Below are positions 18,009-57,600 of a stretch of DNA of 64,000 nt, in pieces (within the stretch, counting starts at the first letter, position 1; each line of letters starts with the position of its first letter). The position numbers and the translations under genes were made by a program. The DNA is taken from positions 406,735-470,734 of the forward strand of contig LODT01000028.1 in NCBI GenBank assembly GCA_001606155.1, read 5' to 3'. This stretch comes from Tieghemostelium lacteum. Taxonomy: Eukaryota. The notes under the pieces are model-generated. The model was not told the DNA's origin, searched no databases, and was given only the letters and a program-made list of their open reading frames with translations.

Positions 18009-20325
18009 TTACAATTGCAATTGCATAGTGGTATCAGCAACTTTATCATTCATTATCAAATCGTCATCATATTGGTGGTTTGAGACTATGGATTCATTAT
18101 GTTCATTATCATAATTATGGTGATGAGATGATTTTAAAGCTGAATTGAAAATTGGTTGTTGAAGAGGAGATGTGTTTCCACTACTACTACTACTACTACT
18201 TCCACTAGTTGAACTAAAATTACTGTGAACTGAACTTGTTGAATTTATAGACAACTGAGATGGCATTGGTTTTTTAAGATTACTATTAGTGTGCACTGAA
18301 TGTATTTGATTGAATTGGTTGATATTGTTTTCCTTGTTTTGCTTTTTCTTTAGTGCTGATGAACTGGTCTGGGTCTTCAAATGTGTAAGTTCAGAGATAA
18401 TAGGTTGTTTCAGTTTCTTTACAGCTCTTGGTGAGTTGTTATTTATAGGAGACAATGGGAACCGTTTCTTATTAGCTGTATTCTGTATCATTTTACCATA
18501 GGGTGAGGAAAGTAATTCTTGTTGTTTCAGCATTTGTATACGAGATGTTGGGGTTTTTGGTGTAGATGGTGTAGTAGTTTGTTGTTGTAGTTTCTTTTGT
18601 GGAGTTTTATTACCACTAGTAGAGGATGATGTACTAGTTTTATGTGAATTATTATTGTTACTGTTATTTTGACTATTACTACCATTACTAGTAGTAGATT
18701 GTTTATGATTTTGTAATAGTTTCTCTCTGTCTTTACGGATCTTTTCAGATTCTTTTAATTTTTTTTCATGTTCATATTGTTGGTGCATTAATTCCAAATA
18801 AGGAAACCCTTCATAACAAAATGGAGTTCCACGAGATTGATGCCATTGATGTAACTGTTTTTTCAGAGTCTCTTCAATTTGTGGGAGTTTCTGAAAGGTT
18901 TTTCTGAGTTTTTCTTCCTGGATAAATCTACCTCTATCGAATTTCTTGGAGAGTAGTCTTTCCTTATCACCAATAACAGTCTGTTCGTATTCAATCTTGT
19001 CATTTCTAATCTGTTCTCTCTTTTCAATGAGTGCTAACAGAGGTTTGGAAACCTCTAGAATCTCTTCAACTCTTTCCACTTCTCTCTCGTAGACTTCGAG
19101 TAACTCTTCACTTTCCTCCTCACAATTATGATTCTCATATATTTCATTTAACTGGTCCAGTGGTAAATGTAATTGAGCGTATATAACATGAATTCTTGAG
19201 ACTGCTCTGTTAATGTACTGACTAAGAGTAGCTTTTCTCAAATCGGATACTCTCTGAAGTTCCTCTTCACAAGCTTCGATGACATCGTATCCAAGTCCTG
19301 CTGTCTTTGAGAAGAATGATTCACGTTCGTCTTCAGGTACCTCTAATTTATCCCATAGTGATGTGATCTTTGTTGCATATTCTTTTACTATAATTTCATG
19401 TTCATTCTTGATTACTATTAATTTATCTCTCTTTTGTTCCAAAGTAGTCAAAGTACCCAAACTCAGACTTATTGGTGATTTTACATCTAAACTGTCTACC
19501 TGTGTCATCAAAAGTATTGATTGTTCAAATTCAGTTTCTGGTGAGAATCTTAGTTCTTCCCATAACTCTAATATCTCAATTGACAATTCCCTAATTGAAT
19601 TAAATTGTGTATCCTATAATATCATATTCCAAATATATTAGAAAATATACAATTTCCATCCATTCCTATACCCCCTATATTTACTCTTTGAATCTTTGTT
19701 GTATTTAAAATTTTTTGAACAGAAGATATTCTTTCCATTGAATAATCATTATGCATAGTGTCATCATGTGAATGTAAATTTGATTTCATCTCCATCTCTT
19801 GTGAAAGTTCATCAATTTTTGATTCCAAATCATCTATAATAATCATTCTATCTTGAATTCTTTTTCTCAATTTACTTAATTCTGATTCAATATATTGTGA
19901 TCTCTGTAATAAATTCAATGATGCCAATGTTTGATGACACTTTTTAAACCATTGTTAATATTATCCATAAACTATTCCAAACCATTACAAATCAACTAAA
20001 CCTACCTCTTTAACAGTCTCGCCTAATTCAGTAGTCATTGTACAAAGTGTTTCAAGTCCATTTATAATCTCTTTCACTATATCATCTTTCTTTTTCTCCT
20101 CACCTTTTAAAAGGTCAGTATAGATATTTAAAACCTGTAATTGAGCTCTGTTAATTTAAAACTAATGTTAATACCTAATGAATTTCAAATAATTATTCAA
20201 TCTATAATATGAGAGATTACAAACAAATCACATAATGATTTTCTATAATTTTGGTCAAATCCAATCTCATCCCAAACTCTAACTGTTTTTGTTAAGAGAT
20301 CTTTAATGTCCAATTCTATACTCAT
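18009..20325 (-). CDS. PRC1/Ase1/MAP65-family microtubule bundling protein; exons 20221..20325, 20006..20134, 19685..19939 and 18009..19613
   Basis: N-terminus VRVWDEIGFDQNYR matches PRC1 IWELIGIPEDQR. ELWEELRFSPETEFE matches ELWDRLQIPEEERE. The C-terminal spectrin-like region FDRGRFIQEEKLRKTFQKLPQIEETLKKQLHQWHQ is conserved. Three AT-rich introns are present (86, 66 and 71 nt; donors GTAATC, GTAGGT, GTAAAT), all phase 0. The Ser/Asn-rich tail is disordered. Confidence 0.75.
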
Positions 20326-20965: not shown

Positions 20966-22395
20966 ATGAGAATTGCAATAGAAGGTTGTTGTCATGGAGA
21001 GGTAGAGACTATATATAATTCATTAGTTCATATAGAACAAAAAACCAATTCAAAAATAGATTTATTACTTTGTTGTGGTGACTATGAGGTTAATATTTAA
21101 AAACTCTACCATTTGAAGATTCAAATATATATATTAATATGATACTAAATGATTTATAGGCACTTAGAAATCAGAGTGATTTAAAGTCATTAGCAGTTAA
21201 AGATAAATATAGACAAATGGGATCATTTTATAAATATTATAGTGGTGAATTAGTTGCACCGATATTGACATTGGTAATTGGAGGTAACCATGAATCTAGT
21301 AACTACTTTTCAGAGTTACCAAATGGTGGTTGGTTAGCACCAAATATATATTATATGGGTAGAAGTGGTGTTGTGACTTTTGGTGGTTTACGTATCATGG
21401 GAATTTCAGGTATTTACAAACAATATGATTATCAAAAAGGTTATTATGAACGTAAACCTTTTTCAGAGGACCACATACGTTCTATATATCATGTCAGAGA
21501 AATGGATATACTTAAACTATCTGCATTGTCTGTGCCTAGACTAGACATTGCCTTTTCGCACGATTGGCCACTTTCCATTGTAGAATATGGAAATAAAGCA
21601 AAACTACTAAAACAAAAGAAAGGTTTTGAGGAAGACATAAACAAAGATGCTTTAGGTAATCCAGCAACTTTACAATTACTTAGACTTCACAAACCAAAGT
21701 TTTGGTTTTCAGGTCATTGTCATGTAAAGTTCCCAGCAGTTTATCCACATACCACTAAACAAGATCAACAGAATTCCAATGAAAACCTAACTGCAAACAC
21801 ATCTGATAATGATGATAGTAACAATGTGTTGGAAACCAGGTTCTTGGCATTGGATAAAGTACTACCAAATAGAGATTTTCTTCAAGTTTTAGATTTTGAA
21901 GCTAAAGGCTCACTAAAACTATGTTATGATATTCAATGGTTACTGATACTTGCCAAAACACAAGCACAAGTAAAACAACATACAAAATCTACAGCATCAC
22001 CATTGAACCCTAATGACTTTAAAAACCTCTATACTGTAGAGGAAATTGAAAGATTTGAAGGTAGATTTGAACTATTACATCAATTAAAAAACCCAAACAA
22101 CAATAATAAGGAGTTTAGTAAACAAGATATTCTTGAAATACCAAAGAATTTTGTACAGAATGCTTATTGTCATAATGCAAATGATCTAAAGAATATATGC
22201 GCATTTGATGATCCATATTTTGATAACCCACAAGAGATTGTTTTGAATAATTTAATCAATGTTTTATCGAGTAACACAGAAATCAATGAAGAAACACTGA
22301 AACAATTAAATGTAGAAACCTTCTCCAAATCAGTATCTCAACAAAATAAGAAAATTAAATATGTTGATGATTCTGAAATCAATATAGATGATTAA
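20966..22395 (+). CDS. dbr1: Lariat debranching enzyme Dbr1; exons 20966..21088 and 21160..22395
   Basis: MRIAIEGCCHGE...LLLCCGDYE|ALRNQSDLKSLAVKDKYRQMGSFYKYYSGELVAPILTLVIGGNHESSNYF is colinear with human DBR1. A 71-nt intron GTTAAT...TTATAG is present. Metallophosphoesterase motifs are present. Confidence 0.9.
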
Positions 22396-26562: not shown

Positions 26563-27952
26563 ATGAACACAATGAAACACATCCTTTTCAATCAGAGATC
26601 CCACAGCTCATCTCTAACAGTATCAATTAAAAGATACTATTGCACAAATAACAAAAATAATAACACAACCATCAGTAAACTCAATAATATACCATCATCT
26701 CCTTTGAATTCCATTCTAAAATACACCAAATCAAAACCTACCAAAAATATAATAATAAACGGTCACAATCAAATCTATAAAAGCAAAGAGCTAATAGAAA
26801 GGGGTTACTACAACAAAGCAGAGAAAAGTATATTATATGGATTTAGATATATGCAGAGGTAAGAAATAAATTATTTCCCAAAAAAAAATCCCATACAAAT
26901 CTCCCACCAAAAAATTAAAAGATTTTACTAACATTATTATATGATATTTTGTATTTAGTCGTGTTAACCCTTTATCATCAATATTTACTATTCCAAATCA
27001 TGCTGTAGGCCTGGTGTCTTACAAGATGGGTAAATTTTCAATAGGTGAACAATTTCTAAAATATTCTTTGGATAGAAAAGATGATGACACTGAGAAATCT
27101 ATATTTTTCACAAGACACCAAATAGGAGCTACCAATGACTTGGGTTTGACATTTTTGAGACAAGGTAGATCTCAAGAGGCTGAGGAGACATTGTTCAAGG
27201 CATTGGACATGGCTAACAAATATGAGTTATTCGATTTACTACCTACAATATATTCAAACTTGGGGGAATTTTATAAGGAAATGTGCTATTATGATAAAGC
27301 TGCTGAATATCACGGTTTAGCACATAGTCAAGCAAACTATAATAAGGATCTTATTAATGGTGCTGATATTGATATTTCCAGAATCTATTTGAATCGTGCA
27401 CAGATTCTCAGAATTTCAGGATCATTAGAAGAATGTAAGGTATTCTATGAACAGGGTGTAAAACACATGTTACAGTATTTTGACAAGATGGGGTACAGTA
27501 AGAATAGAGTACCCAAACACAATGACTGGGCAAAATCATTGATTGAGTTTGGTCATATCTATTATCAGGAGGGACAATACGAAAAGGCATTGTTGAAATT
27601 CCAAAATGCCAAAACTATCTTTGAGGAGATGGGTAATGCCAATACACTAGATGCATTGTTTAATCAGTTGAATATTGCATTGATTCTCAAACATTTCAAT
27701 CCCACACAATTAGACTCTAATGTGCAATTAGACAATATTCAACAGATTCTACAGAGAATTGAAAAACCTTATCAAGAGTTGAAACGTGAGAAATATATGT
27801 CACGTTTCAATCGTATCGATACTGTTATTCAATCTCTAAAAGAACAAAAATTCTTTAACTCTTTAGGAGAAAATATTGCTGCAAAAAAGAATTCAGAGAA
27901 AAACATTAAATTAATTGAACCACAACATTTTCAATTAACTTGTTTCAAATAA
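26563..27952 (+). CDS. TPR-repeat protein with mito-targeting-like N-terminus; exons 26563..26858 and 26959..27952
   Basis: Exon 1 ends CAG AG|GTAAGA (phase 2). The intron is 100 nt and ends TATTTAG. Exon 2 is in frame with the 312-aa ORF. TPR-like repeats (ALDMANKYELFDLLPTIYSNLGEFYKEMCYYDKAAEYH and others). Confidence 0.65.
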
Positions 27953-28067: not shown

Positions 28068-31000
28068 TTAAATTAATAGTTGTTTGAATTTTCCAGCTGT
28101 GATAATTAATTTAATTAGGTGGTCTTGAATGTTCAATTTACTAAGAGCAATTCTAGCTTCAGAGATTTTAAGTTTGGAAAGAAGTTCAGTAATCTGAGTT
28201 CTTGGTTGTTTTATATTGCTAAGGAAGACAAAGACTAGGAGAACTAATAGATGAGATAAGTTGGTACCTTGGGTTGCAGCAGGATTAAGACCGATCAATT
28301 GAGCTTCAGTAATACCAATGTTATTGTACAATGTAGCTTTATAGATGACTGGGAAAACACCATTTGCTAATATACTCTTAAGAGCAGTAGCTACAATTAA
28401 CTGTTGTTTTAGGTGTTCTGGATCTATTTGTTGTTGATCAGATGCTTTAAGAGCTGGTACCACTGGGGCCTTCATTGAACCTGATGCTCCAAATAATGCC
28501 TGTTTGAATGATAAACCCTCCGATGATGAGATAGAGGAAGATAAGGAAGATTTGGAGGAGGATGGAGTTGGAGCTTGTTGGACCTTGTTGAGAGACCATG
28601 ATCGCATTTTGGGTTCTTCCTCCTCCGGTTCCCATTTTTTTGACTTTGCAGCTTTGGAGTGTTTTTTATTCTTTTTTTTGGAGGTTTTGAGTTCTTCTTC
28701 ATCACTTATGTCATCACCCCAATTGTTTTTGAATATATCAAATGGTTGATCTTTTTCTACACTTTTTTTCTTTTGATCTTTTTCTATACTTTTTTGAACT
28801 GGTTCTTCAAAACTATCAAATAGAGAGAATCCCATGTCTTCATCGGAAGATTCTATCATTCTTTTTTCTGATTGTCTCATGGATAATGGCTGAGCTGGTT
28901 TGCTTGTTGATACAGTTGTTGGTGTTGGTGTTGGTGTAGTAATTGGTTCCAATGGATAATAACCAAATAAATCACCATCAGCGAATCCCATGTCAGATTC
29001 GTCTTCTTCTGGCATAGATTTTGCATAATGAGCACTTGTTGATTCTTTAGAATTGGTTCTTGAAACTGGCATACTGTAACCTCCACCATCGTCTCCAAAT
29101 AAGGAGAATCCCATATCATATTCTTCATCTTCTTCCTCTTCTAAATATTTTTCTTTCACCTCCTCTTGTTTAGCTAAAGGTTTTACAGAAGCAGCAGCAG
29201 AATAGACAGTACCTGATATTTTCGAATCAGATCTACCTCCGAAACCACCTTCACTATCCCAGTCTTCATCGTCGTCATCATCATCATTTTCTTCATTACT
29301 GTCATATTCTTTTCTGACAATAGATAGTCTTCTTGTTGACAATCTTGAAGAAAGAGTATCCATAAGAGCTGTTTTGAAAGACTTGTCATTTTCATTTTTA
29401 ACTTCTTTTGGAACAGATTTCAATGTCTGACCAGATTTAATAGACGATAATAGAGATTCAGTTGAAGACTCTTTTTTATCTTCAATAACTTTAGTTGGAA
29501 ATAAACTACCATGTTTCTTTCCACCACTTGGGACACCGCCAGTTGTAGGAGGTGTAATAGAGGATGATCTAGGTGATGGTGTGGTTGAAGAAGATGGTGG
29601 TGGAGGTGGTGGATATGATTGTCCTCCTCCGCCTCCCATGAAATACATAGCACCAGGAGCCATAGGTGGTGGTGTTGGTGATGAGTCCCAACCTATATGA
29701 GCTGCATTTTGGAATGAAGTTGGTGCACCAATTACTAAATCTTTATCATTTAATTTATCTTTCATAAATAGATCTCTCTTTCCCTTTTCTTGTTTAACTG
29801 GTGCCATTTGTTTTGGTGGAGGTGGACCTGAACTTACAGATGGTCTTGGAGGTGGAGTTGATGGTAATGGAGTGAGTGATTGTTGTGGTAGACCTCCAAA
29901 GGATGGCTTTGAATTACCAACTGAATAGAAAACTTGTTGAAAAGATGGTGTCTGTGGTGGACTTTGTACAGATTGTTGCTGTGGTAGACCTCCAAATAAT
30001 GACGTTGAAGGAACTGGGGCTCCAAATGCACTTGTTGATCCAAATTTTCCAGTAGCAGTAGAAGTTGAAGCTGATTGTACGACTGAGAAGCTTTGTTTCT
30101 GTAATTGGTGTTGTTGTATTTTTTGTGGTTGTGGTTGTTGCTGATATTGTACAATTGGAGTAGTTGGTGTATTATAAGGAAGTTGTTGCACAGTTATTGG
30201 TGATGGAGATGGAGGTGGAAGTGAGTTTGTAGATAATTTCTTTTTAAATGAAACCATTCCACCTTTGGATTTACTAAGCTTTTCTTTGTCAACAGATCTT
30301 TCTAAGACACTAAATGAAATATCACTTTTGATATCATTATTGTTATTATTATTGTTATTGTTATTGTTATTGTTATTGTTATTGTTATTGTTATTGTTTG
30401 AAAAATTATTTTTTAAATTGTTGAATGCTTCTCTTAAATTATTACTAAGTGATCTTTTTTTTTCTCCACTTTCTCTTGATCTGGAACCTCTACTTTCGCT
30501 CTCTTTGGGACTTTCATATATCTTTTTATCAATAACCTCAAGCTCACCAGATCCTAAAATGTCATCAACACTATTTTGAGGTGAATATCTAGAAGCACCA
30601 TTGCTCATAGTGGAACCTATTGTACCACCTCTACCTCTAGATCTACCATTGCTGCCACCTCTACCTCCATCTTTACCTCTTAGACTTACATTATCTCTAA
30701 TAGCATTTCTTGAATTTAATGCACCTGATAAATAAGAATCAAGCTCAAGGTCTAAAGAGTCAAAATGTTGATGTGCTTCTAATGATGGTTTTTCATCAGA
30801 TATGGGAATGTTTAATTCAATTGCACATAGTGATTCACTTTGTTCTTCAACTAGGTTTGCTAAATCTTGGAAAATGTCTTTAATTCCAGACATATCTGAT
30901 TGAAGTTGGAGGAGAGATTCATTTCTTTCATGGAGAATTTCATTATAATCCAACTCTTCTTTAGAAAGTTTGTAGGGTCCATATTCTTTTTCTACATTTC

Positions 31001-34000
31001 CAGTTGGATGAGGTCTATTAAGTTCCTTTACAGTTGGTGTGACCGTTTCAACTTTAAAAGTTACGGATGGTTTCATTGGAGATTTAATCCATTTATCTAG
31101 ATTGTTCTTTAACTGTTCTTGTTCATGTTCCTCATTTGAATCTCTGATAGAGGAACGTTCTTGTTCAGATTTCTTTCTTTCCAAACTCAACTCCAAGAGC
31201 TCTTGTTCATTTACAATAGTTGTAAGATCATCTCTAATCTCTTGCATAATCAATGTACTATCTGTATAAGAGTCCTCAGAAAGACTATCCAGTTCTGAGA
31301 TGGCATTGTCAAATGCCTCTTTAAGAATATGAGTTGATTTCTCAACTTGACCTGTTCTCTTATAGAATTGTCCTGCAAATTTACTAGCCCTTAATCTGTG
31401 TGGATGTGTTGATGGTAATGAAGAGAGTTTAGATAAGAGATTGTCAAGTTTTCCCGAGATCTTCTCATCCAATGATTTCTTGGCAATATCATTTTCTTCA
31501 AATTGACTTTGAGTGTCATAGAGTTGACACTCATCTTGAATTAAAGCAATTAGATTCTCATCAACTGCTTGGTTCTTTGGAACGGATTGTTCTATCAATC
31601 TCAATAGACTCTTAACCTGATAGATTAAATCAGTCTTTATCTTCAACTGACCTCTTTGAGCTTGTTTTAATTTTACAGGTGTCAATTTAGTTGGAGTTGA
31701 TACTTTAGTTGGTGTCTTTTTAGGTGTTGAAGTTGAGGGTTGTTGTTGTAAAAATACAGTTGGATCAAATTTAACTAATTCAATCTTGTCAAGAACCAAG
31801 TGTTTAATAGTTTCATTGATCATTTTAATCTCCTCTGTAGTATATTCTCCAAATTGTTCAGTAATTTGGTGGAAAATATTGATTGAATCTTGGTATTGTC
31901 CATTGGCATGCATGGATTTAGCCACATGAACTACTTGGTCTCTCTGGGAGAGTAAAGTGGAATCATTTGGATCTTGATCAGAGCCCTCAGCTTTTTCTTG
32001 CCATTGAATGTATGGTAATGTATCAATAACAGTTTGACTGACAATCTCTTGAATGGATGGTATATCTTTACGTTGAATTTCATTCTTTTCACGTTTTTCA
32101 ACAGCTACAAAACTGGTGAATTGTGTTACAATGGAATATTTAATACTGAGATTGATGATATCTTGTTTCTTTCCAAGTTTAATAAGGTCATTATCAAATT
32201 TTGAATTTGAATAGGTACCATCATTGTATTCTCTAATCATAGATCTTGCTGCTAATCTATGTATAAGACTACCACGAATGAAACCAATTTCAGGAGTGTG
32301 AACTGAATTTGTGATTAATCCACCACCTGGAGCTTGTGCAACGAGAGTAGCTCTAGTAGCAATTCCAGAGAATGCATATATCACTTGTCTTTCTTTCTTG
32401 AAGATTGAAGTAATGATATTAGGTGACTGAATAATCTTATCTGTAGAATCAAATTTAACTGAAATATTTGACATGGATGGTTGTAATGTTCTCTGAAGTT
32501 GATTGATAATCTTTTTTGGATTAGGTCTTTTGTTTGGTACAACAAACTCTGAATAACCACCACCTAGACGAGAGATGGATTTGATGAAATGTCTAGAAAC
32601 ATTTTCACCAATACCAAATGTAAATAATTTACAATAAGGTGATGCCTTTTTAACAAGTTCTTGCACTAAAGTTTCATTGGCAACGTTACCATCACTGTAT
32701 AGAATGATATTGTGTGGATTATTAGGTTTGGCATTCTCAGCTAACAAGAATAGTGATTGTAATGGTTGATGTAGTTGTGTGCCACCATAATGAGGTTTCA
32801 AACGATTGATATGATTCCAAGCCAATTGTAGATTGATTTCAGTTGGAGGTACATCTTCAACGAATAACCAATCAAATTGGTCACCAAACTGGACAATGTT
32901 AAAGAGTACTTTGAAACCACGAAGATTGGAAACAGTGAGTCTAAGAGCTCTTAACATATCCTCAAATGCATCACCAGCCATAGATGCTGAGAGATCAACA
33001 AGTAATGTCAAATGTGTTAGAGAATCCTTGTCATTGTCGATATCTAATTTTGGATAGAATGCCAACATGGATGCATGGTGACCTTGATCATCAACTTCCA
33101 CCCACATTCTAGGTGAATATGGTTCCTCAAGACCAATAAGTAACTGGAAGTTCTTACCAAGACTACTGTCTCCACTTGTGAGTTCAACAGTAGCTTTAGT
33201 GTTAGTCTTCTTTACACGAATTGGATGAGTTGGAGATGTTAATTTAACTATATTATAAGGCATTTCAACACCAACTTGTAGAGTCAAATCAAGGTTTTTG
33301 TCATCACCAATATGGGTAGTAGAAGTTGTGTTTTGAGTTACAGTACTACCACTTTTAGCACGTTGTTGAGGACTGATAGATGATGGTAAAATAAATGAAA
33401 TATCCAAACCATCCATTGACAGCTCTGTTATATAAGTTATCTTTATCAATACATCAGCTTGTGGTGGAAGATTACCAACTGAAACTGAGAAAACATCTGG
33501 TTTATCTTCATCCATTAAATAAGCACCATCACCTCTTTCAACAGCTTCCCTATACTCTCTATGTGCTTTCTCTTTCTCTTTACATTCACCAACTACATGT
33601 TTACCATTGATGAATGCTTCGAAACCACAAACTGCAGCCATTTCATCTAAAGGAAATACATATTTTGCCTCAATTTGAGAACTTGATGAATTCTTGTAAT
33701 GTTGATAGATAACAACCTCACCAATTAAATCCAGAACTTTAGCACGTACATGAACATCTTTTAATGGAATATCAACTTTTCCACCAGATGCAATAAGACC
33801 TACTTCCTTAGGTTCCTCTTCCATATCCTCAGGTTTAGAAGATGGTTGGATCTGGTCACTTACCTTGTCTTGTGGTAATGTTAGTTTTGGAGCACTTTGT
33901 GCACTAACTGCCATAGCTTGAGGTACTGCCAAAGGAGTTGATGTAGTTCTTGCATCAGGCATCTCAAATTCAACTAGATACAAGAGTTTTTGTTGTTTAG

Positions 34001-35935
34001 GATCATAGATTACAATTTCATCATCCTGGAAAGCACTTTGTACAGCAGATGTTGATGCAACACCTTGTACACTTTGGTAGCCTTTTGGAGGGCTGTCTAA
34101 TTGGTATTGATGTTGAGTGTATTTCTTTGTGTTACCCAAGGCAGCTTGGCATACAAACATGTATTTTCTTTGTGAGAAATCGGATCTCTTACAGTACTGG
34201 GTTGAAGTTGAACTCTTTAGACCAAAGTATATACCACTACCAAGGTAACCAATATCTCTTCTGCCTGTGGATAGAGATGTTGATACATTAGGTGTAAGCA
34301 AACCTCTTGACAAAATACCCAAGACATTACTAGGGTTACTACCATGATAGAGTGTCTTAATGTTAGGAATGGAGAACTGAAGATTCAACTCTTCGTTTCT
34401 CTGTGTTGAGTATATCTCCTTGATTACAATATCAGGATTCTGTTGTTTAATCTGGTCATAGAGTTTCTTGTGATCCTTGGAGTTATCAGAAAGACATTGA
34501 ATATTACAACGTAATGCACGATAACGTGTATCCACTATAGAGGTTGAAGAAACACCCAAAGACTCACCAACATTCAGTATATCCTTAATCAATTGAATGC
34601 AATCTTGAATATCCTGAAGTTCAGATACAATCTGAGGAAGATTTCCAGAGGCTGTCAACTGAGCAATCTTGCATTGCTTAAGTTGAGGTAAAGCCTGATA
34701 GACTTCATTGAATAGTTGTACAGTTGTTGGTGATGACAAAAGTGGTTTACCATTATCGGTTTTCATCAGAGTTGCCAATTGGAAGAGTGACAATTCAGCC
34801 TTCTCCACTTGAACCAATGTTATATCACCAAGGTCAGATTTGATTGCACCTTCAGGTGACAATGTCAATTTAGCCTTACACATCAGTTTAGTACCTAGAG
34901 TTGACATGGCTTCCTGATAAATACGTTCAATAAACTTTTGAATAGGTTCGGGAAGTGATGATTTCCCAGAAGAAGACTGTAAATTTGAACTTTGTTGCAG
35001 TCGATCTGAACCTACTCTAGCTGAAGAAACTTGAATTTTAGTGTATTGTCTATTGGAGGTGTACTCTAAAAATATTTGATTATAAAGTTTGAGAGCATCT
35101 TCAATGGTAGATGATGAAACCCATTCTTTAGTTTGATCAACACTACCAGTTGTACCATAGTGCATAAATACTCTATAGAAACTTGGTAATCCTGAATCTG
35201 AAGATCCACTATCACCTCCAAGTGATATAAGTGACAATGCTTTACCAGCTACGTGCAACTCCAAACACATAAACTCTTGTGTATCCAATCTATGAAGGAT
35301 ATTGTATTTAATAATGTGGTATTTATCTTCTGGAAATTGTGATCCAAGATCACTGGACTGCACAGCATTAGGTTGATATTTAACTTTCTTTAACTGTTCT
35401 AATGAAAAACCACTACTACTCTTGTTGTCACCATTTTCAAGAATATCAGAGAAATTCAATGACTTGTAATGAAACTCTTTAATATTATATTGAGATACTA
35501 ATGAATACTCACTAGTTGACAATAAAGTTCCAAATGAAATGGAATCATCAAGATATCTCTTTGAAAGTATTGGTATATTTAATTTTATAGCTTTTTTGAT
35601 ATTAAATGATAATGAATCCACATTTATATCTTTTTTATCTGAATCTGTTTCAGATACTTCTACTTGTTGTTGTTGTTGTTCATCTGCTTTAACTAAATCA
35701 TCAAAATCACCATTATAAATAAAGTAATTAACCTATTGTAAATTAAAGTATTAGTAAAGTAAATAAAATGGTCATTTTCAATGGTGTGTTGGTTCTTAAG
35801 TTAACTTACTTTATGATTTAAAACTGCAGAAACTGTTCCTTTATATTTTAAAACAAGATCTTGTAAAGCTTTTTTAGCTTTGTAACCTTGATTGGTACAA
35901 TCTAAAAAAAAGGTTTGATGTTCAAATATTGACAT
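28068..35935 (-). CDS. Vault poly(ADP-ribose) polymerase (vPARP/PARP4) orthologue with C-terminal WASP-like CRIB-polyPro-WH2-CA extension; exons 35810..35935 and 28068..35732
   Basis: Exon 1 (42 aa) is a BRCT domain (FFLDCTNQGYKAKKALQDLVLKYKGTVSAVLNHK). Intron 35733..35809 (GTAAGT...ACAATAG). PARP catalytic at about 33960..34370: LYHGSNPSNVLGILSRGL, GSGIYFGLKSSTSTQYC, DDEIVIYDPKQQKLLYLVEF. VIT at about 33395..33790 is near-identical to PARP4: EAKYVFPLDEMAAVCGFEAFINGKHVVGE...VGNLPPQADVLIKITYITEL. vWA at about 32540..33025 (LTLLVDLSASMAG). C-terminal half: poly-N; FG repeats; CRIB IGAPTSFQNAAHIGWD (29685..29732); polyPro; WH2 LLSSIKSGQTLKSV (about 29405..29458); central region ALMDTLSSRLSTRRLSI; acidic DDDDDDEDWD (about 29259..29310); three EEDxDMGFSLFD motifs. 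Confidence 0.85.
30334..30410. repeat. Imperfect (GTTATT)n hexamer microsatellite, coding a poly-Asn tract of about 25 residues in the vPARP gene (minus strand)
   Basis: Seen directly in the sequence; NNNNNNNNNNNNNNNNNNNNNN in the ORF translation. Confidence 0.85.
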
Positions 35936-54669: not shown

Positions 54670-57600
54670 TTATTTAGTTTTTCTGAGATTATCTTTGGTT
54701 TTGTAAAATTGAGAAAGTGATTCTAGGGATTTAGTGCACTTTAAGTTATTTTGTAGACATACTCTTGCCCATTTTGATAGTTTTTCACTGTACAATGATT
54801 TTGAGTATCTTTCATCAACTAACAATATAGAACCATAATCATTACGATGTCTGATACATCTACCTATAGCTTGATTGAGTGCACGGAATGCTTGTAAATT
54901 GTACCAATAGTGTCCGTCAATGGCCTTCTGTTCTTGTTGTTTTATAGTGTCATTATAAGCTTTCTTTAATTTAACCTTGATATCACCAAGATTCGGATAT
55001 GGAATACCAACTACTATAACACCTCTGGCATATTCATCAGAGAAATCAATACCTTCTGAGATCTTTCCTCTGCAGACTGCCATCAGAATGGCACCGTCTC
55101 TACCAGGTGGATTATCTCTGATGGTTACATAGTAGTCTGATAGAGTCTCTTTAAAGTTACTAGAACGTTCTCTAAAGATTTTCTTTACATTATTCAAACG
55201 ATCATAGAGTTTAGTGGATTTCCAACGTGCTTCAATTTTATCTAAAAAACCATAGGATGGGAAAAACAAAAGGACACCATGAGGTATAAGTTTACAATGC
55301 TCCAGAATAGCCTCTCCAAGTGCATCTTGAAATTGTAAAGATTCTGAGGGTTTGGAAGTACAATCCATTTTGATTTGATCATTTTGACCTGCGAAACCTA
55401 GGGTGTTGATCCAAACTCTAGATTTAATGTCACTGAGATTTCCCAGTTCAGCAGTGATTGGAAATGGAGCTGAGAGTTCGAATGCAAAACTATTCAATGG
55501 CGTAAGGGTACCACTGGTCAATATAACAGTTCTAACCTGATCGAATATTAATGATGAAAACGCCACCCTAGGTGACATTGCCCAGATACCCAGTGTATGA
55601 GCCCACTTTGTTCCACTCTGTCCTTTACCAGTTGGCACAAAAACAGAGTTCTTTTGAATGACCAATTTGTAATCTTTCAGAAATGTATAATCTCTCTCGA
55701 ATATAAATTTTATAGATTTGACAAAAGAGTCCAAGAGAATAACAGTTTTAGGTGACACAAATTCATAGAGTACATCACCCTTATTTCCAAAAAAGTCATC
55801 ACCTTTCTTAAGATCTAGTTCACTGGATAGCATAGCAATGTTGGTTTCCAGATCGGGAAATGTAAATTTAGAAACACCCATCTCTTCCAAAGCACTTAAT
55901 ATATCATCCTTTTTCTCTAGAACCAATGCATATTTTTCAAAATCCACTTTCTCTACAGACGCTAGTTTCTTCTTGAACCATGTATTTATCTTCTCCAATT
56001 GTCTAAATATATAGGTCATCGATTGTAAACGTGTGGGATGTTTGGTTGTTAAATCGTTGTATAGTGTAGGGTTCTCCAAAGTACTTCTAATCTGTTGATA
56101 GGATTCAAATAGTTCTTCAAGAGACACATTAAAACTTGCAGCATCCATAAATGCATCCTCTACATTATGTGCCTCATCAAAAATCACAATGGAATTTTTC
56201 ACCTTTTTTTTAAATGCTTTTCTAATGGAGGGATCAATGAGATAATTGTATGGACAGAATATCAAATCTGCAAACTCAATCATATCCTTACTGGCAAAGA
56301 ATGGACATTCTCTAGTTTTCTTTCCTTCCAATATAAGATCCTCTATATCCCATACTGCCAATTCACCACCAGCCTTAAACTTTGATGATTTTGCTATAGA
56401 ATATGTATTTTTTACAAATTTACATCCACTGTCTCTTATCAATTTCATACATCTTTCTTTTTTCTTTGCAATATTCTTTAGTTCTGGATTGACACAATAG
56501 TGATCTCTTGACCCCAACACCAACATATTAGGTTGATAAACTGTCTTTTTTAATTCCTTTGTCAACTGTTTAATTTGTGAATGTGTTCTACTACAATAAA
56601 ATATAGTTGGAACTGGTGGTGCCTTAAAACTATCTTCGTTATCTTCTATATTATCAACATTACCATTTCCATTATTATTATTATTATTATTTTCATTATT
56701 TTTGTTTGGATTATATTTATATTGTGAAATAAATTCATCAAAATCATTGTTCATATTATTATTATTTTCATTTTTGATTTTGTTTGGATTATATTTATAT
56801 TGTGAGACGAATTCATCAAATCCATCATCCATTGTTTTTCGTTTTAATCCATTTGCATTGTCATTGCTATTATTATTATTATTTAAATGTCCAAATCTAT
56901 TGAGTGCATCTTTAAATTCTACAAAATCAGTTTGTAATTTATCTGCAAGTTGTTGTGATATTTGACTAGTTTGTAAATCGTCTAGAGGTGTAGTGGCGGA
57001 GGCTTGTGGGTCAATTTTAACTTTTTTTTGTTGGTTTTTCATCTTTTCCATGAGCTCTGTTTCTTGATGCTTTAGCAAGTTCTTTTGCTTGCTCTAATAA
57101 CTTATTTGCCTTTTGTTTTTGAGTGAACTGCCATTCCAATGTACTTGCCAAGAGAGTTAGTGTTTTTCCAGTGCCTGTTGCAGACTCCAATACACAATGT
57201 GTAGAGTTATCCAATGATTCCAATATATGAGAAATCATTGTTGACTGACATTCATATGGTTCATATGGGAATTTAACTTTATAACCTTTGATTAAATAGG
57301 TATTATCACCTAAATTCGTACATATTGGTGTTTGTATTTTTGGTGGTGATTTACTAGTATCATTATTATTATTGTTGTTATTTTTGTTAAGATTTAATTT
57401 AAGTGTAGATGATGATGATGATGTAGTGGTTGTTGTAGTTGTAGTGGTAGGTTTTTGAGGGAGTTTTAATTTCAATGTCAATTTAGGTTGAGAATTTTGA
57501 GATGAACCTTGTGATGAGTTTTGTAAATTTTCAGTTGGAGTTGGGGTTGGAGTTGGGGTTGAGGTTACTGTATCTTGAGATTGTTGTGAACATTTTGAAG

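Follow-up and report, generated by a model that had tools for sequence, protein, structure and literature searches.

Members of the PARP4 (vault PARP) family have been catalogued by their Pfam domains, revealing a third type among PARP4-like proteins that combines VIT-vWA with a 14-3-3 domain and is found in D. fasciculatum, D. purpureum, P. pallidum, Acanthamoeba, lancelet, sea urchin, and Capsaspora; actin or actin-binding and ubiquitin-related domains were noted on other PARP4-like proteins (Perina et al, 2014; PMC4245714). The D. discoideum relatives listed in an earlier survey all lack a VIT domain (Citarelli et al, 2010). In primates and bats, positive selection on PARP4 acts on the disordered exon 30 alone, and this region has been proposed to recognize pathogen factors for ADP-ribosylation or vault sequestration (Daugherty et al, 2014; PMC4038475). 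A 2026 cryo-electron tomography study reports that D. discoideum vaults hold 80S ribosomes in fixed orientations and bind endoplasmic reticulum and nuclear-envelope membranes, and its MVP-TurboID proteome includes several PARPs (one annotated as PARP4/vault PARP, not equated with the protein described here) as well as 69 of 79 ribosomal proteins (PMC13100048). Here, we describe a gene of this family on the minus strand of a 64,000-nucleotide stretch of the Tieghemostelium lacteum genome (contig LODT01000028.1, positions 406,735 to 470,734; hereafter the window, whose own numbering is used below). By its domains, the gene is a dictyostelid PARP4 of the subtype with a 14-3-3-like domain after VIT-vWA, and the tail of its 2596-residue product is, by motif content, a mosaic of borrowed modules with a conserved core: a polyproline-WH2-C-A segment of the kind found in WASP-family proteins, together with ribosomal P-stalk tails, of which the dictyostelid proteins have two to four and this one three.

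The T. lacteum protein belongs to the third type of Perina et al, and three of its orthologues (P0001, P0003, and P0004) are proteins named in that account. Unlike the proteins as seen there, where domains are given at the Pfam level only, it carries a WH2-C-A module, P-stalk tails, a SNARE piece, and a 14-3-3-like domain that has lost its phosphate-binding residues, and heptads of the RNA polymerase II C-terminal domain (CTD) occur in its orthologues; none of these is described in that work (PMC4245714). An earlier interpretation of the same DNA, made from its letters alone (the sequence-only reading), had called the architecture non-textbook. This needs to be narrowed, as the association of PARP4-like proteins with 14-3-3 and actin appendages is published, and it stands for the WH2-C-A module, which is not described there (PMC4245714). 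In the open-access literature, nothing was found that ties PARP4 to WH2 or WH2-C-A segments, P-stalk tails, SNARE motifs, decoys, integrated decoys, or mimicry, and both the conserved core and the wider collage principle appear to be undescribed.

Five dictyostelid orthologues were available for comparison (D. purpureum, Cavenderia fasciculata, Heterostelium album, Synstelium polycarpum (P0005), and one EukProt entry), which share 51-55% identity with the window protein over its N-terminal ~60%; the nearest is that of D. purpureum, with 55% identity over the N-terminal 62%. All six-way comparisons below are of the window protein with these five, and conservation was taken from their full-length MAFFT alignment. 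Past residue 1560, the tail is nearly unalignable across the six species (identity 0.08-0.3) and of low complexity, with poly-Asn, polyproline, and Ser/Thr-rich tracts. In this region, only the WH2 segment, the C helix, and each of the three P-stalk tails stand out as islands of conservation. The features that resemble a WASP-family protein are arranged as follows:

29814..29855, minus strand: polyproline stretch 1, aa 2002-2015 (direct reading)
29685..29795, minus strand: basic stretch and CRIB core, aa 2022-2058, core at 2043-2058 (Pfam PBD below threshold; WASP and N-WASP matches in the PDB)
29595..29612, minus strand: polyproline stretch 2, aa 2083-2088 (direct reading)
29406..29465, minus strand: WH2 (V) segment, aa 2132-2151 (Pfam WH2 12.8 bits, below threshold; conservation island; aligns column-wise with WASP-family WH2)
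29316..29375, minus strand: central or connector (C) amphipathic helix, aa 2162-2181, with an invariant Arg-Arg pair (conservation island; fits the WASP consensus L...L..A...RR..I)
29250..29303, minus strand: acidic (A) motif with a conserved Trp, aa 2186-2203 (Trp invariant in six of six; profile finds WASP-family C-termini)

The C helix with its invariant Arg-Arg and the acidic run with its invariant Trp are present in all six orthologues, and a clear WH2 in five of them; in the alignment of the six segments (A1), the invariant positions are L11, R50, R51, and W74. Taken alone, the WH2 reaches 12.8 bits in Pfam, for a cutoff of 23.1. A profile of the whole WH2-C-A segment built from alignment A1 was searched against 1.84 billion representative proteins and retrieved 43 of them at E<=1e-3, including WASP-family C-termini at whole-library E-values of 4.5e-7 to 1e-3. 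After the five orthologues, most matches span the whole profile at their own C-terminus, and these are mostly WASP-family WH2-C-A segments (VCAs). When ten of the matches were examined with Pfam, nine contained a WH2 (seven above the cutoff), two combined WH1, PBD, and WH2 and one WH1 and PBD (P0032, P0041, and P0037), and three more combined PBD and WH2. Four of the vault PARP (vPARP) segments align column by column with 28 WASP-family VCAs, with the shared consensus R.DLL..IR.G..LK.V ... L...L..A...RR..I..D..(acidic)..DW.D, and in pairwise BLASTP of residues 2016-2205 the VCA matches a WASP with WH1 and PBD at E 1e-5. Given the conservation islands among orthologues and the retrieval of WASP VCAs by the profile, the WH2-C-A module is, as far as sequence can tell, real and under selection, and it is more than a chance similarity. 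The sequence-only reading had proposed a WASP-type WH2-C-A preceded by polyproline within one open reading frame (ORF), which the six-species conservation and the profile search bear out; in the Pfam/HMMER check that it suggested, the WH2 by itself stays below threshold, and the six-segment profile retrieves WASP-family proteins.

In module order and in the consensus of WH2, C (Arg-Arg), and A (Trp), the segment resembles WASP-family nucleation-promoting factors, both a WH1-less form (P0019) and WASP proper (P0032, P0037, and P0041). It differs from them in being set inside a 2596-residue ADP-ribosyltransferase, in having an internal VCA, and in lacking the targeting domains of the family: no WH1, SHD, WAHD, or similar targeting domain was found in the 2596-residue protein (Pfam, E<=1). 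The VCA ends at residue 2203, ~400 residues before the C-terminus, whereas in 24 of the 31 WASP-family matches it lies no more than 6 residues from the end. Among the other matches to the VCA profile, P0022 (581 aa) is built like an NBR1-type autophagy receptor (PB1-ZZ-NBR1 Ig) and contains a WH2-C-like segment at aa 89-158, and P0028 (1608 aa) has an internal WH2-C-A and no other recognized domain. These two proteins suggest that VCA-like modules exist outside the classical nucleation-promoting-factor families.

Is the module under the control of a Rho GTPase, as the sequence-only reading had it? The Pfam PBD match reaches 15.7 bits (E 0.019, cutoff 21.3) and covers only positions 2-18 of 59; as the match is limited to these positions, the autoinhibitory segment appears to be absent, and nothing resembling the autoinhibitory part of the GBD was found after the CRIB core. 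The first of the conserved CRIB histidines is replaced by Asn. A phmmer search of the PDB with the CRIB-to-A fragment returned WASP and N-WASP (E 0.28-1.7); the one other match, a Rad6 chain (1ayz_A, E 5.3), aligns with the acidic tract. The basic-CRIB stretch aligns with P0019 (PBD and WH2; BLASTP E 4e-5) in an order colinear with the VCA match, and the whole segment from the basic stretch through A looks like a captured WH1-less WASP-type unit. Among the six orthologues, the CRIB is intact only in T. lacteum; H. album keeps a split remnant, IGSPSNF[N6RDGS]FQHIGMAFG, D. purpureum only VIGAP, and Pfam finds no PBD in the five orthologue tails. Support for a CRIB is thus only suggestive. A motif that is below threshold, core-only, and intact in one species implies that Rho-GTPase regulation is not a conserved property, which sets the protein further apart from WASP-family factors with their autoinhibitory GBD. 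Of the proposed CRIB/GBD motif, a sub-threshold core is seen at residue 2043; the label "GTPase-regulated" is weakly supported, with the intact CRIB core confined to one species, no PBD in five orthologues, and no autoinhibitory GBD. With an internal VCA and no autoinhibitory GBD, a classical switchable WASP is disfavored, and to judge from its motifs the tail is not a classical autoinhibited, Rho-GTPase-switched WASP.

Translational GTPases, GCN2, and ribosome-inactivating toxins such as ricin and Shiga toxin dock on the P-stalk tails of the ribosome. The other part of the conserved core consists of three copies of such a tail:

29088..29141, minus strand: P-stalk tail copy 1, EEEEDEEYDMGFSLFGDD (Pfam Ribosomal_60s; conservation island)
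28956..29009, minus strand: P-stalk tail copy 2, EEDESDMGFADGDLFGYY (conservation island; same variant DMGFADGDMFD in C. fasciculata)
28803..28853, minus strand: P-stalk tail copy 3, ESSDEDMGFSLFDSFEE (Pfam Ribosomal_60s; conservation island)

Pfam Ribosomal_60s scores 31.8 bits (cutoff 28.1) over three stretches, at profile positions ~54-88, and the copies (EEDEEYDMGFSLFGDD, EEDESDMGFADGDLFG, and SSDEDMGFSLFD) can be compared with the canonical form ...EESDDDMGFGLFD. As in ribosomal P1, P2, and uL10, each is an acidic-DMGF-x-LF-[GD] tail, and the set lies above the family cutoff; unlike in these proteins, the copies are internal and comprise just the last 20-35 profile residues, without a dimerization or stalk-anchoring domain. 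Since only the last third of the profile is matched, we regard them as motif copies and not as a member of the P1/P2 family. The orthologues have between one and four copies that fit the regex cleanly, along with degenerate ones, and D. purpureum reaches 46.9 bits over four stretches. We considered FFAT, LIR, and FAM21-type LFa motifs by eye as an explanation for the same residues and set them aside, as the upstream acidic run and the DMGF fit a P-stalk tail and the Pfam cutoff is passed. Just past copy 3, a 27-nt tandem repeat (2.2 copies, window 28748-28807, minus strand) encodes a duplicated KSIEKDQKK/KSVEKDQ; after it comes another acidic-Trp/Phe motif, DQPFDIFKNNWGDDISDEEE.

The remainder of the tail region holds further borrowed elements:

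31221..31922, minus strand: 14-3-3-like domain, aa 1313-1546, phosphate-binding residues lost (Pfam 14-3-3 47-50 bits, cutoff 33.2; 14-3-3 zeta in the PDB, E 6.5e-17)
30795..30935, minus strand: truncated Qa-SNARE (syntaxin-type), aa 1642-1688, zero-layer Gln kept, Pro break after IELNI (phmmer against the PDB)
30615..30677, minus strand: RGG/RS-type box, aa 1728-1748 (direct reading; similar boxes in the tails of H. album, C. fasciculata, and P0051)
29892..30044, minus strand: FG-type repeats, aa 1939-1989 (regex and direct reading; recur in all orthologues)

The 14-3-3-like domain is kept in six of six orthologues and in the lancelet, and its helices H-I are almost identical to those of 14-3-3 zeta. 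Of the phosphopeptide-binding residues, R56, R127, and Y128 are replaced in all six, and K49 is kept only in T. lacteum (MAFFT against zeta, of which roughly residues 3-52 and 70-235 were checked against the PDB alignment). With this quartet lost among the orthologues, the domain would be a retained surface and not a canonical phospho-reader. A homology search with this region for relatives in Acanthamoeba and Capsaspora returned ordinary 14-3-3 proteins only.

The Qa-SNARE piece matches syntaxin 7 (1gl2_B) at E 2.9e-6, and ~30 of 36 PDB chains retrieved by phmmer are syntaxins or Sso1 (syntaxin-1A, Sso1, and syntaxin-13). Its zero layer aligns ...LVEEQSE... with ...IHEQGD... of syntaxin 7. 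The match halts at the Pro after IELNI, so that the C-terminal layers are missing, and an acidic, Ser-rich disordered sequence follows. Pfam gives no SNARE match for the piece and no syntaxin N-terminal domain, and there is no membrane anchor. Searched as a whole against the PDB, the tail yields syntaxins (the top match) and the uL10 tail only, with no further fragments.

Some of these elements vary by lineage. Exact CTD heptads (YSPTSPS, 2-7 copies) occur in four of five orthologues, all except S. polycarpum, and at differing positions: in H. album, they sit between WH2 and C, and in D. purpureum they exceed the Pfam cutoff. In S. polycarpum P0005, a weak synaptobrevin-like (R-SNARE) stretch (aa ~2150-2185; Pfam 13.5 bits, E 0.063) directly follows the acidic-Trp motif, and as the Qa-SNARE lies elsewhere in the T. 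lacteum tail, SNARE-type pieces may have been acquired independently. FG-type repeats and RGG boxes recur among the orthologues by direct reading. On present comparisons, the lineage-variable extras are thus the CRIB core and truncated SNARE of T. lacteum and the CTD heptads of four of the five orthologues. The sequence-only reading described the C-terminal extension as a WASP-family activator, and this is right in that a WH2-C-A is present and too narrow in that the tail also has a 14-3-3-like domain, a Qa-SNARE piece, and three P-stalk tails. Judged by this inventory, the VCA is one of several borrowed modules and not the identity of the tail.

The tail is joined to an enzyme core of PARP4 type, encoded in the same gene:

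35810..35935, minus strand: exon 1, aa 1-42, beginning of the BRCT-like N-terminus (ATG at 35935)
35733..35809, minus strand: intron, 77 nt, GTAAGT...TAG, phase 0 (junction colinear with D. purpureum)
28068..35732, minus strand: exon 2, aa 43-2596 and stop, a single unbroken frame (sole GC dip is the poly-Asn tract)
34581..34961, minus strand: PARP regulatory-like helical region, aa 300-426 (Pfam PARP_reg 18.6 bits, E 0.002, cutoff of 26.8 not reached; inside the block aligned with rat PARP4)
33960..34433, minus strand: PARP catalytic domain, aa 476-633, H505/Y544/E614 (Pfam PARP 76.6 bits; 8swy E 9e-31)
33432..33800, minus strand: VIT, aa 687-809 (Pfam 126 bits; ~80% identity to rat PARP4)
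32544..33011, minus strand: vWA, aa 950-1105 (Pfam VWA_3 59.6 and VWA 48.9 bits)
31992..32543, minus strand: conserved post-vWA region; PARP4 colinearity stops at aa 1289, LPYIQWQEK (BLASTP end; dictyostelid conservation 0.63-0.82)
28071..28421, minus strand: all-helical C-terminal domain, aa 2480-2596, candidate vault-docking domain (AlphaFold2, mean pLDDT 67, 8-9 helices)

Pfam on the full protein finds PARP, VIT, VWA_3, and VWA at the scores listed. Rat PARP4 (P0007) aligns with residues 279-1289 at 35% identity over ~1010 residues (BLASTP E 1e-178). The best PDB match of the catalytic domain is human PARP4 (8swy), with PARP1 at E 5e-10, and the H-Y-E triad aligns with the human protein at LYHGS/LLHGS, at GSGIYF in both, and at DDEIVIY/DDEFVVY. 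An intact-triad PARP4 orthologue with VIT and vWA is what the sequence-only reading had predicted, and the close likeness of the VIT to PARP4 that it noted is also found, as measured against rat. Its claim that the N-terminal 1400 residues are colinear with vPARP holds for residues 279-1289; the BRCT is only near threshold (20.6 bits, cutoff 21.3; BRCT_2 20.7, cutoff 27.3), with an acidic and Gln-rich insertion within the region. The first 1290 residues are probably an active H-Y-E ADP-ribosyltransferase scaffold, and the remaining ~1300 comprise the pseudo-14-3-3 domain, the disordered tail with its great length, and a small end domain of helices.

From the BRCT-like N-terminus through the helical region, PARP (H-Y-E), VIT, and vWA to the post-vWA region, the domains follow the order of mammalian PARP4 (rat P0007; human 8swy and 9bw6), which likewise has a long disordered region between the vWA and a helical C-terminal domain; the T. 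lacteum tail occupies the position of the disordered exon 30. Beyond the near-threshold BRCT, it differs from the mammalian protein in the 14-3-3-like domain inserted after the post-vWA region, in a ~900-residue disordered region with recognizable VCA, P-stalk, SNARE, and CRIB modules, and in a helical C-terminal domain without detectable similarity to MINT. For this last domain, hhalign against the MINT of animal PARP4 gave a probability of 0.3%, a Foldseek search of the PDB with the model returned no PARP4 and nothing below E 0.6, and its profile found no PARP4 among PDB sequences. A very diverged MINT would still be conceivable.

The enzyme and the tail are read in one frame. An unbroken 2517-codon ORF occupies 28068-35621 of the minus strand, the first ATG exon (35935-35810) lies 5' of it, and the intron joins both in frame; read without splicing, the sequence meets TAA immediately past the GTAAGT donor. 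The junction ...LNHK/VNYFIYNGDF... is colinear with that of the D. purpureum orthologue, ...LNQKVNYYVFYGDF... (LNQKVNYY). This two-exon model gives exactly 2596 residues and so reproduces the product size in the sequence-only reading, and all motifs quoted there are found in the stated order: LYHGS begins at residue 503, GSGIYF at 540, DDEIVIYD at 612, PPPRPSVSSGPPPP at 2002, IGAPTSFQNAAHIGWD at 2043, PPPPPP at 2083, LLSSIKSGQTLKSV at 2136, ALMDTLSSRLSTRRLSI at 2164, and DDDDDDEDWD at 2192. The window is AT-rich (22-36% GC), and the 2517-codon ORF lies in DNA of ~30-36% GC. A GC scan of the gene showed neither a stop codon nor an AT-rich, intron- or intergenic-like gap between the enzyme part and the tail, and the poly-Asn tract was the only place in which 90-nt segments fell below 17% GC. 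This tract and the 27-nt repeat were the only tandem repeats found.

Tails of this kind also occur outside the dictyostelids. An unrelated VIT-vWA protein of a GC-rich eukaryote (P0051; ENA metagenome contig L001, 9516-15355, plus strand) has no PARP domain, and its locus leaves no upstream room for one. Its tail contains a P-stalk-like DDNVGFGLFDEE, polyproline, a WH2 (LLSSIHAGSSLKK), a C segment (LFSALSSALSSRRSS), the acidic-Trp motif DEDEDEADWDD, and an RGG box, followed by a large C-terminal domain; by its motifs, this tail repeats the dictyostelid logic on another scaffold. Among metazoans, we surveyed 132 mostly partial PARP4 sequences with simple regexes, and some of the gene models may contain prediction errors. 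Pfam recognized the following pieces:

actin fragment, profile positions ~2-52 of 410, in Dreissena, Saccostrea, and Amphiura
synaptobrevin fragment, profile positions 9-47 of 89, in Saccostrea
Hsp70 substrate-binding fragment, profile positions 381-526, in Dreissena
14-3-3 C-terminal half, profile positions 129-223, in Branchiostoma
ubiquitin, whole domain, in Dreissena and Littorina

The tail of Dreissena polymorpha P0006 (LOC127851394 isoform X2; aa 1193-2330) additionally has RTKQTARKSTGGKAPR, which is the N-terminal tail of histone H3 (PDB E 1.7e-5, 133 H3 chains), a WH2-like LKKV, four CTD heptads, and a long polyproline, and a MINT-like end domain follows. In Littorina P0071, an H3-like stretch comes after the ubiquitin, and Amphiura P0057 has a 14-3-3-like piece and an actin N-terminus. 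Direct reading shows DVDMAFALFDDD in Saccostrea P0170/P0065 and DDLGFGLFD in the sea bream Sparus aurata P0114. The regex search of the invertebrate PARP4-like sequences in this set yielded no complete WH2-C-A. These invertebrate proteins (P0006, P0170/P0065, P0057, P0071, and Branchiostoma P0060) resemble that of T. lacteum in their PARP4 core, in tail position, and in carrying fragments of ultra-conserved hub proteins on a disordered tail; in Dreissena, the vWA region precedes the collage elements and the C-terminal domain follows them, and by position this is also the case in dictyostelids. The types in common are 14-3-3, SNARE, CTD heptads, P-tail-like and WH2-like motifs, and polyproline. 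What sets the invertebrate repertoires apart from that of T. lacteum is ubiquitin, the tail of histone H3, the N-terminus of actin, and the Hsp70 substrate-binding domain.

What could such a tail do? The reading that we hold to be somewhat better than even, by analogy with the sources of the modules, is a multivalent motif-display or "bait" tether that brings motif-binding proteins to the enzyme or the vault. Each module would bind the partner of its original: the VCA would bind G-actin, profilin-actin, and Arp2/3 and may activate Arp2/3, the P-tails would bind P-stalk-tail-binding proteins, be it translational GTPases, GCN2, or ribosome-inactivating toxins, and SNARE partners would be bound by the SNARE piece. 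In this way, the tail would keep the captured proteins beside the ADP-ribosyltransferase, probably at the vault or within it, where they would be modified or sequestered. As the VCA has every sequence determinant of an Arp2/3- and actin-binding module, recruitment of actin and Arp2/3 is the most likely role of this segment. Display or bait is favored over a simple sum of functions because a pseudo-14-3-3 and a truncated SNARE would be incapable of the normal job of their families. The three P-tail copies could capture P-stalk binders, so that a link to ribosome-containing vaults is directly testable. Several points weigh against a display tether. The partner assignments are all by analogy; the VCA and P-tails are internal here and C-terminal in their originals; the WH2 is degenerate in the sixth orthologue (P0002); and in H. 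album ~50 residues of CTD heptads split WH2 from C. In addition, the SNARE is truncated, the CRIB is short of one His, and the 14-3-3 is without its ligand-binding residues, and because of these defects several modules may be non-functional relics. Finally, vault residence of this protein is unproven, given the lack of detectable MINT similarity in the C-terminal domain.

Other explanations have to be set against such a display tether. That the C-terminal part is a separate WASP-like gene or transcript 3' of a shorter vPARP gene, fused by an annotation artifact, is barely credible: the sequence alone would be compatible with an internal promoter, yet there is one 2517-codon ORF with no stop and no AT-rich, intergenic-like stretch, the same fused architecture is found in five independent dictyostelid orthologue models, and ~400 residues, the conserved end domain included, continue after the VCA. 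We rejected a separate downstream gene on these grounds. The fused tail might instead be evolutionary debris, with gene pieces gained by fusion or exon capture and now persisting as neutral relics in a fast-evolving, low-complexity tail. Most of the tail is indeed unalignable (identity 0.08-0.2) and of low complexity, CRIB, SNARE, and CTD modules come and go among species, and the key residues of the 14-3-3 are lost. Neutral relics would not be expected to leave WH2, C, and A (invariant Trp and Arg-Arg) and the P-tails as conservation islands in six species, to recur as the same motif types independently both in a VIT-vWA protein that lacks PARP and in the tails of metazoan PARP4, or to retain a 14-3-3-like domain in six of six orthologues and the lancelet, and we consider debris very unlikely. 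A Rho-GTPase-regulated nucleation-promoting factor, in which Rac- or Cdc42-GTP would bind the CRIB, free the VCA, and activate Arp2/3 to couple vault and PARP4 to branched actin, seems distinctly improbable, if less so. Its appeal is that WH1-less WASP-like proteins, P0019 among them, show a colinear order of basic stretch, CRIB core, polyproline, WH2, C, and A, that the VCA is conserved and statistically WASP-like, and that actin and actin-binding domains have been noted on other PARP4-like proteins (Perina et al, 2014; PMC4245714). Against this stand the CRIB, which is below the Pfam cutoff, matched at positions 2-18 of 59 without the segment that folds with the C helix for autoinhibition, changed from His to Asn at its first conserved His, and intact in one of six orthologues with a PBD match in none of the other five, as well as the internal position of the VCA. 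Such a factor would also leave without explanation the P-stalk tails, which are just as conserved, as well as the SNARE fragment, the CTD heptads, and the pseudo-14-3-3.

In plant NLR integrated decoys and mammalian tripwire sensors, an effector enzyme or scaffold of immune type is joined to copies of host targets, whose complement varies by lineage. P-stalk aside, hubs that are candidate targets of effectors include SNAREs, WASP and Arp2/3, 14-3-3, actin, ubiquitin, the H3 tail, and the Pol II CTD. The T. lacteum tail may be likened to these systems in concept only, with host-fragment copies on an enzyme scaffold and a lineage-variable complement; unlike NLR integrated decoys, the PARP4 protein has no NLR or NACHT module, the likeness being one of analogy. 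An integrated-decoy array, in which the modules would be baits that imitate hubs attacked by bacterial and viral toxins and effectors, and whatever binds or cuts them would be ADP-ribosylated, held captive by the vault, or would set off the enzyme, is unlikely in our estimate. It would account for fragments that are not working domains (14-3-3 without its phosphate-binding residues, truncated SNARE, and the actin 5-52, synaptobrevin 9-47, and H3-tail pieces of molluscs and echinoderms) and for a complement that turns over by lineage although Amoebozoa and Metazoa draw on the same types of hub. Ricin and Shiga toxin dock on P-stalk tails, and in primates and bats the equivalent disordered region of PARP4 has been subject to recurrent positive selection (PMC4038475). 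Conversely, dictyostelid and invertebrate PARP4 are without any shown pathogen link, the WH2, C, A, and P-tails are conserved over the sampled dictyostelids, which a housekeeping interaction fits at least equally, and hub proteins are also the likeliest partners of any adaptor. The wider proposition that PARP4-type proteins from amoebae to molluscs, possibly including mammalian exon 30, are decoy-array immune sensors displaying copies of hubs (the actin D-loop region included) we likewise hold to be unlikely; if true, the vault particle would be an effector trap.

The functions of the vault and of PARP4 have been open for decades, and a display tether would name testable partners for both: actin and Arp2/3, P-stalk-tail binders, and SNAREs. 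Hub fragments in PARP4 tails across phyla suggest a general principle, be it recruitment of cargo and substrates or pathogen bait, that could explain positive selection in the equivalent region of mammalian PARP4. The tail would also add an Arp2/3-activator-like module outside the recognized families of nucleation-promoting factors.

Finally, no tRNA genes were found in the window (ARAGORN), and its other ORFs include a second putatively NAD-linked protein near the vPARP gene. This 1208-residue ORF (window 42223-45849, plus strand), ~6 kb from the vPARP gene with two unannotated ORFs in between, has a long disordered N-terminus and a SIR2-like domain at aa 936-1057 (Pfam SIR2_2, 104 bits). Directly downstream of the vPARP gene lies a TPR protein (27014-27952, plus strand); further neighbors, like it ordinary genes of a eukaryote, are a lariat-debranching enzyme C-terminal domain (21217-22395, plus strand), a MAP65/Ase1 protein (18009-19586, minus strand), and a DEAD_2/Helicase_C_2 (XPD-type) helicase (54670-57078, minus strand).

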